64,000 nucleotides of DNA from a virus (IMGVR_UViG_3300045988_160394:32001-96000), one strand, 5' to 3'. Shown: positions 15,466 to 54,933, numbered from the stretch's first letter. Numbers and translations are program-made. The notes: generated from the letters alone by a model not told the origin.

Positions 15466-15726
15466 ATGAAAAAACACAGATATTGACTAAGAAGAAAAGG
15501 ACGTACATATAGTGTTATTTTTAATAACAAAGAGAGGACCGATATGATAATATTATTTATGCAATTTAGTTTTAAAGACTTTTGTTTTAAACCTAAAGCA
15601 TTATCTTTAGATAAAGATACAATAGCTATTAAATGGTTATTTATATATTTCGGTTTTATGCAAAAAGATAGTAGATATAAATGGCATCATGTTTTAGATA
15701 TACCAGATAAAGAAAGAAAGGATTGA
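15466..15726 (+). CDS. hypothetical protein, contains in-frame TGA (15484)
   Basis: ATG 15466 behind aaggggg RBS is in frame with ORF 15544..15726 through one TGA. Confidence 0.5.
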
Positions 15727-15733
15727 TATTTAT

Positions 15734-16030
15734 ATGGAGAAAAGTAAAGTTATAATAGATAGAATAAAATTTATTAAATGTATAGATTGTGGTAAACCAA
15801 TAGCTCTTTATATAAAAGGAGAATACAACGATACAGGTACTTGTAATGAATGCTTTGCTCCTAATAGCTGTTTAAGAAACGGTATTGATGAGATGACAGA
15901 AACAGATTTATTTGATAAATATAATACAGAAGCTTTATATGATATTATGTTTTATAAAGAAAAGTTATTAAAACATTTATCATTAAAAGATTATTATACA
16001 TTATGGAAAATATGGAGGGATAATAAATGA
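15734..16030 (+). CDS. hypothetical zinc-ribbon protein
   Basis: ORF track. Confidence 0.5.
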   Translation: MEKSKVIIDRIKFIKCIDCGKPIALYIKGEYNDTGTCNECFAPNSCLRNGIDEMTETDLFDKYNTEALYDIMFYKEKLLKHLSLKDYYTLWKIWRDNK

Positions 16031-16545
16031 ATAGTGAAAAAGAAACTGTTTATAGATGTATGAAATGTGGATCGCTATATTATAGTTATGAAGCTGCTGA
16101 AACATGTTGTGGACCAAAGTTATGTAAAGAATGTGGTAAAGAAATACCATATTGGAAAGAAAGATGTTGTGAATGCCGTGACAAGAAAATATTTGATGAA
16201 GCAAAAAAGATTCATTTAGAAGATTATAAAGGAAGCTATGTTTATGACTATATAAGTGAAGATTACTTTAGTAGTATTGATGATTTAATAGATTTTTATC
16301 ATGCTAAAGAAGAAGAATTGCCTAAGTATTGTTATGCTTGTACTCCTATAAGCTATTCTTTAGATATATATTCTGTTATTGAAGATAGTATAGTAGATTT
16401 ATATGAAGAATATGAAGAGGTTATGGATAGTTTAGTTGATCTAGATAAGTTAGAAGCATTTGTTGAAGAATGGAACAAAAAACAAGTTGACATATGCTAT
16501 GAACAAGATCAGTCAACTGTTATATTATTAGATGATATTAAATAA
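16027..16545 (+). CDS. hypothetical Cys-rich protein
   Basis: ORF track, overlapping stop/start. Confidence 0.55.
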   Translation: MNSEKETVYRCMKCGSLYYSYEAAETCCGPKLCKECGKEIPYWKERCCECRDKKIFDEAKKIHLEDYKGSYVYDYISEDYFSSIDDLIDFYHAKEEELPKYCYACTPISYSLDIYSVIEDSIVDLYEEYEEVMDSLVDLDKLEAFVEEWNKKQVDICYEQDQSTVILLDDIK

Positions 16546-16621
16546 AAATTTAATATATACAAAATAATGTACCGTATGGTATAATATTGAAATAATAAAT
16601 AAAATGTAAGGGAGAATTTTA

Positions 16622-51773: not shown

Positions 51774-52928
51774 TTTGCGTTAGCTGGATAATTAGTGATA
51801 TCTCATATAATAAGATATGAGGTGATAAAATTGAGATATAAATGGACTCAAAAAAAAGTAGATTTATTAAAAAAATATTATGAAGAAGGTTTAAGTAATA
51901 AAGAAATAGCTAATAAAATGGGTACTACTGTTCATAGTGTTTCTGGGAAAGCTAAAGAACTTAAATTGAGAAAAAATTTATCAAAAGTATATAATTTATT
52001 AACTGATAAAGAAAAAGAATATATAAAAGCCAATAGTTTAAAAAAATCTATCACTCAGATAGCAAAAGATCTGAATAGAGATAAAGAAACAATAAATAAG
52101 TATATTAAACAAAATAATTTAGTTACAAAATTTAATTTATTTGATCATTTAATGACTAATGAGGAATTTGTTAAAGATTTTAAAAATCCTTCATTATCAC
52201 ATGCTTTTTTAGGTAGAAAATATAATGTTACTGATTGAGTTATAAGAAAATGAAGGTTAGCAAACATAGGTAATTACAAACAAATGACAGATACTTATTT
52301 ATGTAAGTCAACTTCTGAATTAGAGGTTGAAAAAATATTAGAAGAATTAGATTTGGCTTATATTTATGAAAAGAAAATTCTTGATTGAAAAGTAGATTAT
52401 TACTTAGGCTTTAAAACTATAATAGAAGTTCAAGGTGATTACTGGCATAATCTTGATAAGGTAAAAGAAAAAGATAAACGTAAATTTAAAGAACTTCGAG
52501 ATAATGGATTTACTATTATAGAAATATGAGAAAGTGAATTATCAAATATAGATTTAATAAAAACTAAGATATTATCCAATTTTAGGGTCTCCCTTAAGGA
52601 GTAATTCTTAAGTAAAAAACTTGGTGAACTGTTTGCTTAACAGGTGTGCAATTAACGTTAAAGTAGCTATAGTAAATGATAGTTAATAATTGTGCTAACA
52701 GGGAACATTGCTAACGGCAATCCTGTGCCAAGACTTATTATCATGATAAGTAAGGTCAAGAGACTATCGAAAACAAATAATAAATATAACTCCTATAAGG
52801 AGAATAAGGTATTGTAGGATACACGAAGTGAGTAGAGTACGGTAGAGATAAGCACTACTGGAAGTGCCAAGTCCCTTATTAGTATTAAGGGTAAAGATAT
52901 AGTCCGACATCATAAAATAATTGTGATG
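51774..52928 (+). mobile_element. group I intron in recA carrying a Vsr-like endonuclease gene
   Basis: Exon ends U, intron ends G; 3' core contains aagatatagtccgac, closely resembling the conserved P7/P3 strand of group I introns; splice restores MHGD|LPLVLAGGRAIRY. Confidence 0.7.
51831..52604 (+). CDS. HTH plus Vsr/PD-(D/E)xK-like homing endonuclease; four in-frame TGA (52236, 52251, 52386, 52527)
   Basis: TTG 51831 behind gaggtg (alternative GTG 51795); C-terminal IIEVQGDYWHN...FTIIEI-W-ESEL. Confidence 0.7.
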
Positions 52929-53528
52929 TTGCCATTAGTTTTAGCTGGAGGTAGAGCTATAAGATATTCTTCTATGCTTACTTTAGATATAAGAAAAAGA
53001 TCTATTCAAGAAGCAGATCCTGTATCTAGAGATGAAGGTATGAAGATAGGAGTTACTATAAATAAAAATCACTGTAGACAAGATAGAATGCCTTATTTAA
53101 AAACAGAATATTTCGTTGTTTATGGACAAGGTACAGAACGTTCTATAGAAATAATAGAATTAGCTGAAAAGTGTGGTATTCTAACTAAAAAAGGTTCTTG
53201 GTATAGAGAATATTCAGGAGAAACTGATAGTAAAGGAAATCCTATAGAAAGAATTTTATCAGATGGAACTAAAGCTGCTTGGAATGGTATGAAAAATACT
53301 AGAGCATATATCTTAAGTCATCCAGAATATTTTGATTATCTAGTAAATAAAGTTGAAAACTTTGGTCAAATAGATGTCGAAACTCTATCAGAAGAAGAAA
53401 TTCAAAGATTAGAAGAAGAACATAAGTTAGAAGAAGCTTCAGCTAGTGAACAAGATATAACTCTTGATGATATAATACAAGATCCTGATACAACTGAAAC
53501 AAAAAAATCTACTAAGAAAAAGAAATAA
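52929..53528 (+). CDS. recA: RecA-family recombinase, exon 2
   Basis: LPLVLAGGRAIRYSSMLTLDIRKR... matches RecA L2 / following region. Confidence 0.75.
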   Translation: MPLVLAGGRAIRYSSMLTLDIRKRSIQEADPVSRDEGMKIGVTINKNHCRQDRMPYLKTEYFVVYGQGTERSIEIIELAEKCGILTKKGSWYREYSGETDSKGNPIERILSDGTKAAWNGMKNTRAYILSHPEYFDYLVNKVENFGQIDVETLSEEEIQRLEEEHKLEEASASEQDITLDDIIQDPDTTETKKSTKKKK

Positions 53529-53582
53529 TATATAGGTGGTTTAATAGCCACCTATTATAATTACTTTTAAGGAGGAGATAGT

Positions 53583-54233
53583 ATGAGTTGTGAATTTGGG
53601 TATACAGATTGTAAAAATGAAGGAAAAAGATGTGATTTGTGTTTTGATGCATCAAATTATGTCCCTGCTAAACCTAAAACTCAAGGACTAAGAAAGAGAA
53701 ATACAGAAAAAGCAACTGGTAGAATGGGAGAATATTTCGAAAGAAATAATAATAAGGCTGTTAAAAATAATATTCAATCAGTTGTAACTAGTATGACACC
53801 TAACTCAGGAGCGGGTAAGGTTAAAGGTGATCAACAGATCACTGGTATGATTAGGATAATGGAAGAATTAAAGACTCAAGATCCTCACCGTGCAAGAGGT
53901 CATAATCAATTTACTATTCAACGTAAATGGTTAGATAAATTAGATAGAGAAGCTCCTGTTGAAAATATGGAATTCTGGTATCTAAAGTTTGCTTTTTGTG
54001 ATACAGATAGTAATCATTATATAGTCTTTGACGCAGATCAAATGAGAGATATGGTTGCTACTTTAATACACGACAGAAAGAAAGTAAATGATGCTGATGC
54101 TAAAGTAAAAGTAGCAGATACTAGAAGAGTATTAGCAGAAGCAGAATCAACAAAACTATTTGCAGAAGTTGAATACTTAAAAGCTATTTTAAACAAAGAA
54201 GGAATTGAGTACGATGATTATTCAGGACACTAA
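53583..54233 (+). CDS. putative PD-(D/E)xK nuclease (Holliday-junction-resolvase-like)
   Basis: SGAGKVKGD...IMEELK arrangement; weak. Confidence 0.4.
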   Translation: MSCEFGYTDCKNEGKRCDLCFDASNYVPAKPKTQGLRKRNTEKATGRMGEYFERNNNKAVKNNIQSVVTSMTPNSGAGKVKGDQQITGMIRIMEELKTQDPHRARGHNQFTIQRKWLDKLDREAPVENMEFWYLKFAFCDTDSNHYIVFDADQMRDMVATLIHDRKKVNDADAKVKVADTRRVLAEAESTKLFAEVEYLKAILNKEGIEYDDYSGH

Positions 54234-54933
54234 TTTACAAGAAAAAATATCTAAATCTATTTTAAAATATGAAGAGGTTTTTGGAGGCAAATATAAGATG
54301 GAACAAAAATATTTGTTGACTGGGAATAGCGTTTTAAATGAAATGCTACATGGTGGTTATAAAAAAGGTACTAGCACTGAAATAAGTGGTATGAGTGATA
54401 CAGGTAAAACTTTTTTAGCTATTAAAGCTATATTAGAAGCTCAAAAAGAAAATAAGATGACTATTTATATAGATACTACTTTAAAATTAACAAATGATGT
54501 TCTAACTGATAATAATATAGATCCAGATGGTGTAATTATTATTAGATCAAATAAAGCTGATAGTTTAGGACCTACACTTAAATCTATAATTGAACCTTAT
54601 TCTGATGAAATAGGCTTAATAATTATAGATGATTTAGCAGGCTTAACAACTTCTTATGAACAAGAATCTTCTATTAAAAAGAATACTGATATTCATAGAA
54701 GCAAAGTTGTAAAATCTTTATTGATGAGAATAAGCAATCTTATTAGAAATACTGAAATAACTTGTTTAGTAATTAATCAAGAAAGAAGCAATTTTGATAA
54801 CGAAGATATAGAAGTAGTATCTTCTTTTGAAAAATGAATTCAAATGTGTTGTGACACTAGAATCAAGCTTGTTATTGATGAAGATGGAGATGCTTGTGTA
54901 GATGTTAAATTTAAAGAAAAGAGGTTAAAGTAA
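54214..54933 (+). CDS. RecA/RadA/KaiC-like ATPase paralogue; in-frame TGA at 54835
   Basis: Walker A GMSDTGKTF, Walker B LIIIDDL; continues past TGA to TAA 54931. Confidence 0.6.

Follow-up and report, generated by a model that had tools for sequence, protein, structure and literature searches.

Background

Gut phages that read TGA as tryptophan (Trp) with the help of their own suppressor transfer RNAs (tRNAs), in the manner of genetic code 4, have been described as the Jade and Agate clades, and in these phages the endonuclease of an intron is preferentially recoded with TGA (Borges et al., 10.1101/2021.08.26.457843). Here we examine a stretch of 64,000 nucleotides (nt) with 27.3% GC (IMGVR_UViG_3300045988_160394:32001-96000; hereafter the window, from whose start all coordinates are counted), which belongs to a phage-like genome that is AT-rich (27% GC), uncultured and of a new lineage, and in which TGA is probably read as Trp through a tRNA with the anticodon UCA, tRNA(UCA), encoded in the same DNA. 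The phenomenon is real and is already known in phages, for the recoding is of the suppressor-tRNA kind that Borges et al. reported, now seen in a new lineage; what is new is the unusual suppressor tRNA together with the cassette at its 3' end, made of a ribozyme candidate and a GIY-YIG endonuclease gene, and to this the window adds very sparse recoding and a recoded sigma factor. Like the phages of Borges et al., the window has in-frame TGA at Trp positions, a tRNA(UCA) of its own, close relatives that use the standard code, a likely standard-code Firmicute host, a recoded endonuclease within an intervening sequence, and DNA-metabolism genes most of which are compatible with the standard code. 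It differs from them in that recoding is much sparser (about 12% of genes against 26-71%), in that neither a tryptophanyl-tRNA synthetase (TrpRS) nor release factor 1 (RF1) is present in the window, and in that the suppressor tRNA is non-canonical.

Other described systems share parts of this arrangement. In the Mollicutes (translation table 4) UGA likewise stands for Trp by way of a tRNA with the anticodon UCA, but in them TGA predominates among the Trp codons and release factor 2 (RF2) is absent, whereas in the window TGA is a minority codon, clustered and probably still in use as a stop. The selenocysteine tRNA (tRNA-Sec) and the allo-tRNAs (Mukai et al. 2017, PMC5389517; PMC7609411) have in common with the window tRNA the UCA anticodon, a long extra arm and the discriminator base G73, whereas the window tRNA has 7/5 rather than 8/5, 8/4 or 9/3 base pairs (bp) in its acceptor and T stems, a 4-bp D-stem, an extra arm of 46 nt with three helices, and codon columns that indicate Trp. 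Theta ribozymes, which are minimal ribozymes resembling that of hepatitis delta virus (HDV), have been found beside phage suppressor tRNAs that lack CCA; in that survey only 4.5% of the tRNAs beside such ribozymes had an encoded CCA, the genomes concerned were enriched in RNA ligases and CCA-adding enzymes, amber suppressors made up 99.7% of the suppressors in the pairs, and none of the pairs came from a code-4 genome (Kienbeck et al. 2024, PMC10879173).

The relatives used for comparison comprise two recoded genomes, L001 (224 kb) and L005 (196 kb), three that translate with table 11, namely L003 (a contig of 255.7 kb), L006 and L007, and a small contig, L130, which is 98-99% identical to the window.

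Genes with in-frame TGA

We delimited open reading frames (ORFs) with TAA and TAG as the only stops. An earlier note, made from the DNA of the window, had proposed that ORFs interrupted at TGA continue in the same frame and that the joined products are single recognisable proteins, and both proposals are borne out: every TGA it listed lies inside a longer plus-strand ORF delimited by TAA or TAG, and the joined products give Pfam matches to ThyX, RecA, LAGLIDADG_3, DUF559 and Sigma70_r4. All convincing genes of the window are on the plus strand, and about ten of them carry the 16 sense TGAs. Under table 11 the window has 88 ORFs of at least 50 amino acids (aa), seven of which end on TGA; four of these seven are read-through cases, and the others end at 15724, 16028 and 46054, the last of which is located just 3' of the HPHG motif at which gyrA is interrupted and is non-coding.

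The possibility that these genes are decaying pseudogenes, or that the fragments are split and separately expressed, is hardly credible. Homing endonuclease genes do often decay; against decay or splitting stand the maintenance of the frame through up to four TGAs with TAA and TAG never in frame, the conservation of the sequence 3' of the TGAs, and the retention of the same TGA columns at 62-71% protein identity. The fragments that follow the TGAs have no start or ribosome-binding site (RBS) of their own, Shine-Dalgarno sequences being found at the upstream starts and none 5' of the post-TGA fragments.

The gene for ThyX (27527-28258; Pfam Thy1, 83.5 bits) has its sense TGA at 27587, which is codon 21, and no ATG, GTG or TTG occurs over the 95 codons 3' of it (27590-27872). 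The sigma-70-family factor (38197-38877) has three, at 38293, 38410 and 38485. Its Pfam match to Sigma70_r4 is slightly below the cut-off (22.3 bits), its homologues carry PF04545, and a profile of these homologues searched against PDB recovers RNA-polymerase sigma factors (E=1e-6 and E=1.7e-4) with regions 2.2 and 4 covered; the column IGwVKAV maps to region 2.2, in agreement with the placement of RIG-TGA-VKAV in sigma region 2 by the earlier note. Among the 31 sigma homologues one entry is identical to the Trp-substituted sequence of the window, which indicates that a public gene caller had already applied code 4 there, and many entries are truncations of 125 aa starting at MFARR, so that the protein collection contains full-length and 125-aa versions of the same factor. 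Upstream of the sigma gene, a hypothetical protein (37396-38172) with an RBS at its start has sense TGAs at 37471 and 37810.

Two endonuclease genes located within interrupted genes are also recoded. The LAGLIDADG homing endonuclease (46146-46928), with sense TGAs at 46362 and 46530 and a LAGLIDADG_3 match of 37 bits that spans the first of them, lies within an intervening sequence of gyrA (exon 1, 45817-46050; exon 2, from about 47307). This sequence of about 1.26 kb follows HPHG in the gyrA region (45817-49550); L001 is split at the identical place with no LAGLIDADG ORF, and gyrA is uninterrupted in L005 and L003. The Vsr/DUF559-like endonuclease with helix-turn-helix domains (51795-52604) has sense TGAs at 52236, 52251, 52386 and 52527, the last two being spanned by the DUF559 match. 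It splits recA (51129-53528) into an N-terminal ORF (51129-51791, ending in HGDFALAG) and a C-terminal one (52923-53528, with ...LVLAGGRAIRY), a layout that recurs with the Vsr-like gene in L006 and L007. A search with Rfam found no group I intron in the intervening sequences of gyrA and recA. A separate RecA-like ATPase (54214-54933; Pfam RecA, 57 bits) has a sense TGA at 54835, and when it is read through, its stop and the next start overlap as TAATG; the 31 residues 3' of the TGA are conserved and include the invariant motif C..TRI.L.

The remaining cases concern less well characterized ORFs. In a protein with a HicA-like domain (30966-31859) the TGA at 30969 is codon 2 and lies directly 3' of the RBS AAGGAGG and of an upstream terminator hairpin, and a similarly basic N-terminus is found in the L005 orthologue. 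In a cysteine-rich hypothetical ORF (25290-25577) with a TGA at 25404, the strong RBS TAAGGAGGA precedes the GTG start. The strong RBSs 5' of the proposed starts support the reading of 25404 and 30969 as sense codons. A third hypothetical ORF (15466-15747) contains a TGA at 15484 that is possibly sense and another, at 15724, that could be either a stop or a sense codon.

Amino acid specified by TGA

Thirteen TGA columns could be aligned to homologues, and in nine of them at least one relative that translates with table 11 has a Trp encoded by TGG; a tenth (54835) is Trp in a homologue checked only as protein, and the other three have phenylalanine, tyrosine or variable residues. Neither glycine (Gly) nor a natural C-terminus is found at any of the 13, and the assignment of TGA to Trp that the earlier note had made is supported by the TGG-encoded Trp of the table-11 orthologues. 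The strongest columns are those of the sigma factor: 38293 and 38410 are Trp in all 15 full-length homologues, TGG in L003 and TGA in L001 and L005, so that both invariant Trp codons are TGA in all three recoded genomes examined, and 38485 is variable. For ThyX, both L006 and the 86%-identical orthologue of L001 have TGG in place of the TGA. In the hypothetical protein, 37810 is TGA in L005 and TGG in L003, and 37471 is phenylalanine in two orthologues. The LAGLIDADG column 46362 is Trp in L007, and in the Vsr-like protein 52236 is TGG-encoded Trp in L006 and serine (Ser) in L007, with 52251, 52386 and 52527 being TGG-encoded Trp in both. The column at 54835 is occupied by Trp, leucine or isoleucine. 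Alignments obtained with phmmer against PDB for ThyX and the RecA-like protein end before the TGA columns. Read with Trp, the peptides across the TGA sites include RLWDELDK, IGWVKAVK, ILDWK and IIEIWESELSNIDLIK.

Insertion of selenocysteine (Sec), or of Gly as in code 25, has next to no probability. Although the UCA anticodon and the long extra arm resemble tRNA-Sec, Gly occurs at none of the aligned columns, cysteine and Gly are at no conserved column, and the single cysteine is found in one distant homologue at the variable position 46530, where relatives also have tyrosine and valine. Each of the 16 sites would moreover need a selenocysteine insertion sequence (SECIS) element, and where tRNA-Sec has an 8/5 acceptor/T arrangement of 13 bp with a 6-bp D-stem, the window tRNA has the 7/5 fold and a D-stem of 4 bp; its best member of the Rfam clan is RF00005, not RF01852.

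The suppressor tRNA

The cognate tRNA(UCA) that the earlier note had placed at 34129 was recovered by Rfam, where RF00005 matches exactly 34129-34247 on the plus strand with 47.9 bits. It is a 7/5 cloverleaf with the anticodon loop CUUCAAA, the discriminator G73, a G1-U72 pair and no encoded CCA, and its variable region holds a structured insertion of 46 nt (34175-34220) with three helical segments of 5, 4 and 5 bp. ARAGORN calls four canonical tRNAs in the window and misses this one because of the insertion, since deleting these 46 nt yields a normal cloverleaf with the anticodon tca. The same tRNA of 118-119 nt is present in L001 (5693-5811), L005 (4936-5053) and L130, and L001 and L005 are genomes that use TGA. 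In the consensus fold the 7/5 cloverleaf has a D-stem of 4 bp and the three-helix extra arm, and compensatory changes are seen, among three distinct sequences only, at 4:115, 10:27 and 53:89, the C53-G89 pair being U-A in L001.

UGA is the leakiest of the stop codons, and one may ask whether low-level readthrough by the host tRNA-Trp(CCA) would suffice, with the phage tRNA(UCA), structurally aberrant and missed by ARAGORN as it is, being non-functional or having another role. We consider this very unlikely: with four TGAs in one gene of 269 codons and three in the sigma factor the compounded yield would be negligible, and precisely those genomes that use TGA have kept the tRNA, with compensatory changes.

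The TGA-free L003 carries a tRNA-Trp(CCA) whose anticodon arm is that of tRNA(UCA) except for C34U. The identity set of bacterial tRNA-Trp consists of a Trp-type anticodon arm, G73, a weak 1-72 pair and G5-C68; in tRNA(UCA) G73, G/A1-U72 and G5-C68 are present, and overall similarity fails to distinguish Trp from Ser or Sec. The Trp assignment is made from the correspondence of the TGA columns to Trp, and the tRNA itself is not its basis.

The determinants of the seryl-tRNA synthetase (SerRS) are a long variable arm and G73 (PMC7609411). Since tRNA(UCA) has both, one could suppose that it is a class-II-like tRNA charged by SerRS, as with tRNA-Sec and relatives of the allo-tRNAs, and that UGA is read as Ser; the base of its variable arm and its anticodon arm do match those of a bacterial-type tRNA-Sec on a metagenome contig (L129, 941-1040), and Ser is seen at two variable TGA columns. 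Even so we judge Ser unlikely. The nine columns of 13 with TGG-encoded Trp, together with the tenth known from protein only, include invariant Trp residues kept as TGA in three lineages, and no conserved Ser is aligned with any TGA column. The likeness to L129 is partly a product of the search pattern, which selected for it, and the 46-nt arm is more than twice as long as any Ser or Sec variable arm. We retain Trp as the residue probably inserted at UGA.

Ribozyme candidates and an endonuclease cassette at the tRNA 3' end

A candidate HDV-like ribozyme of the theta type (34248-34317, plus strand; RF02682, 31.4 bits, E=0.0019, below the gathering score) directly follows the tRNA, with its predicted cleavage site at the first base after G73. 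The alignment contains P1 (GUCUCUC/GAGAGAC), P2 (UUAGUAA/UUACUAA), P3 and the J4/2 motif GGCUAA, and the same arrangement is found at the tRNA 3' end in L005 (5054-5124, 35.2 bits). A second candidate on the plus strand (35045-35123; RF02682, 36.0 bits, E=0.00017), which is native in that it also occurs in L130, lies 6 nt 5' of tRNA-Gln and about 65 nt past the original end of tRNA(UCA)-CCA.

Comparison by blastn with L130 delimits the insertion. L130 lacks 34248-34981, retains the sequence ...GTG CCA and is 98-99% identical on both flanks, which shows that the first ribozyme candidate and the GIY-YIG endonuclease ORF (34340-34966) form a plus-strand cassette of 734 nt inserted into the CCA, exactly after G73 and with replacement of C74. 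The same cassette occupies the same site in L005 (5054-5771), where the GIY-YIG protein is 77% identical. Strict positional orthology with L003 was abandoned, as the GIY-YIG gene and the 209-aa ORF beside the tRNA-Trp there are not homologous. Judging from this arrangement, the cassette may be mobile and, through cleavage by its ribozyme, may give the tRNA its 3' end back, and a search of the literature for a cassette of ribozyme and GIY-YIG gene at a tRNA end found nothing.

The context agrees with that of the Kienbeck survey in having a ribozyme-like element at the 3' end of a CCA-less suppressor tRNA in a recoded phage, with a gene of an RNA-ligase family nearby. It differs in that the partner is an opal suppressor, in that the ribozyme is a candidate with hits below the Rfam gathering score, and in that it is part of a cassette which is present or absent between near-identical genomes. 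The nearby gene (57093-59285, plus strand) encodes, according to Pfam, a fusion of a Pnkp-type kinase (AAA_33), Metallophos and RNA_lig_T4_1, which is RNA end-healing and sealing machinery of the bacterial type, and it is possible that this protein would heal the 2',3'-cyclic phosphate left by ribozyme cleavage.

Extent of recoding, TGA as an apparent stop and the probable host

Within genes TGA is strongly avoided: it is in frame 22 times, 16 times as a genuine sense codon, compared with 264 and 1018 times in the other two frames. The 16 sense TGAs stand beside about 130 TGG codons, making up about 11% of Trp codons, and roughly 70 genes use those TGGs without any TGA. TGA-bearing genes number 13 where permutations give a mean of 18 (P=0.003), that is, fewer than at random, the codons being clustered. 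A crude ORF-based estimate over the 64 kb puts coding density at 87.8% with table 11 and 90.9% with table 4, a gain of only about 3 points, which is below the rise of 5-10% in use as a threshold for code-4 phages. Because a control in which TAG was made a sense codon rises almost as much (90.0%), coding density is not diagnostic here.

The earlier note had also stated that no gene needs TGA as a stop, and this does not stand. The plus-strand gene 15734-16030 ends AAT AAA TGA, its terminal TGA at 16028 being part of an overlapping ATGA at which gene 16027-16545, with the RBS GGAGGG, starts. Its sole homologue (P0056 of L008; 99 aa, 81% identity) also ends on TGA, and the substitutions 3' of the overlap are silent when read in the frame of the gene that follows. 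This conservation suggests that TGA probably still terminates in at least one gene, and 15724 may be a further TGA stop. Of the description as code-4-type, the part that TGA is a sense codon for Trp holds, whereas full code 4 of the Mycoplasma type does not: TGA is here sparse and clustered, is not the main Trp codon and apparently persists as a stop.

A host that itself uses code 4, resembling Mycoplasma or Spiroplasma, would be mirrored by its phage with no switch of code. The low GC (27%) and the tRNA(UCA), which is also typical of code-4 organisms, fit such a host, and yet it appears quite unlikely. At 27% GC a share of TGA of only about 11% of Trp codons is not what it would lead one to expect; where the host is recoded, about 90% of the genes of its phages contain in-frame TGA (10.1101/2021.08.26.457843), far above its use in the window; and the TGA stop in the conserved ATGA overlap, the absence of TGA use from the close relatives L003, L006 and L007 and the Clostridium-type clustered regularly interspaced short palindromic repeats (CRISPR) of the window argue in the same direction. 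For half of the phage-borne repeat there are matches at no fewer than 120 loci in genomes, nearly all of them arrays of Clostridium or Clostridiaceae, and this half, made degenerate, was used in place of the full 29-nt repeat, which had no exact match in GTDB genomes. This match points to a host that is probably a Clostridium with the standard code, the setting in which a suppressor tRNA(UCA) carried by the phage would act.

The repeats, of Clostridium type, are at 19889, 19955 and 20278 and form two small CRISPR-like units, with a duplicated segment of about 95 nt ahead of each (19767-19860 and 20156-20250), just 3' of the gene for a TnpB/Cas12f-like protein of 446 aa (Cas12f1-like_TNB and OrfB_IS605) in the region 18296-20306.

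Lineage and neighbouring genes

The designation as phage, which is drawn from the genes present and from homologous contigs of 196-256 kb, is a probable one. Megablast of 24 kb of the window against INPHARED phages gave no match, and tblastn of the topoisomerase II subunit against INPHARED reached at most 41% identity, with no cultured relative; a search of IMG/VR with sigma peptide patterns and a tRNA pattern returned nothing. Besides the split recA, ThyX, the second RecA-like ATPase and the Pnkp/RNA-ligase fusion, the genes recognised on the plus strand encode an NAD-dependent DNA ligase, PnuC, NadR, a NUDIX protein, ferritin, FolD, a GroEL of 876 aa, ClpP, a ClpX-like ATPase, the single-stranded DNA-binding protein SSB, topoisomerase II/gyrase-like subunits, Rad52, thymidine and thymidylate kinases and the uracil-DNA glycosylase UDG. 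A nicotinamide adenine dinucleotide (NAD) module is formed by the DNA ligase, the nicotinamide mononucleotide (NMN) transporter PnuC and NadR (9202-13465 and 21234-22466), with the NUDIX gene at 25839-26420. GroEL (28258-30888) has 876 aa against 534-543 aa in L001 and L005, and the added N-terminal portion, with its matches to PHROGs of terminase, primase or DnaC annotation, points to an intein or to a fused domain.

The canonical tRNA cluster (35130-35738, plus strand) contains Gln-UUG, Ile-GAU, Met-CAU and Asn-GUU, all with encoded CCA. Its tRNA-Met gene (35445-35523) is an insertion or deletion relative to the near-identical L130, and at 35338-35440 there is a tRNA-like element, called by neither ARAGORN nor Rfam, with an acceptor stem, a D-arm and a T-arm in which a 13-bp hairpin replaces the anticodon arm. 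In L005, Rfam reports 'drum RNA' (RF02958) above the gathering score at 6335-6463 and 15660-15776, one of them inside the tRNA cluster.

Proposed mechanism and implications

We propose that a subset of genes uses TGA as Trp and that these codons would be decoded by the phage-encoded opal suppressor tRNA(UCA). The HDV-like ribozyme would free the 3' end of this tRNA by cutting right after G73, the cut end would then be healed and CCA added, and host TrpRS presumably charges the product, which would compete with host RF2 at UGA. Under this model, genes needed before the suppressor is active would avoid TGA, and TGA would accumulate in genes that tolerate or exploit delayed translation, such as those for the sigma factor, ThyX, the RecA-like protein, the two intervening-sequence endonucleases and several further ORFs.

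Several observations weigh against this proposal. The recoded genes are those for the sigma factor, ThyX and the RecA-like protein rather than the structural and lysis genes of the published late-gene pattern, and no structural or lysis gene was recognised in the window. The tRNA combines the long variable arm with G73, both of them SerRS elements, and pairwise comparison with tRNAs for Trp, Ser, Sec and others does not tell its origin. Three of the 16 TGAs (15484, 25404 and 30969) have no homologue with which to be aligned, both ribozyme candidates (31-36 bits) score under the RF02682 gathering score of 44, and CRISPR-repeat similarity is the sole basis for the probable assignment of the host to Clostridium.

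As a tentative suggestion, which may well prove wrong, the opal suppressor could be seen as a gated device, and this can be read in three ways. The extra arm of 46 nt, which is conserved, could have a regulatory or protective role, serving for the control of charging, as a guard against nucleases or as a recognition handle. Because two of the sigma TGAs are at the invariant Trp codons in all three recoded genomes, synthesis of the sigma factor, and with it a later transcription programme, could depend on tRNA(UCA). The ribozyme and the GIY-YIG gene could form a mobile cassette of an undescribed, self-repairing kind, in which the damage done by insertion is repaired by ribozyme cleavage and not by splicing.

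Table 11 breaks or truncates about ten genes of the window, and standard gene callers and screens by coding density would miss the recoding. With genes broken in this way and no signal in coding density, the lineage is probably mis-annotated in public sets. The code-4 phages thereby gain a Clostridium-associated lineage of large phage-like genomes, and the suppressor tRNAs that are hard to detect, whose existence Borges et al. suspected, gain a concrete case. An opal suppressor paired with a theta-type ribozyme is a combination that was not found in the original theta survey. Finally, TGA is both a sense codon and, apparently, a stop within one genome, which fits a competition between the suppressor tRNA and RF2 and not a complete reassignment of the codon.

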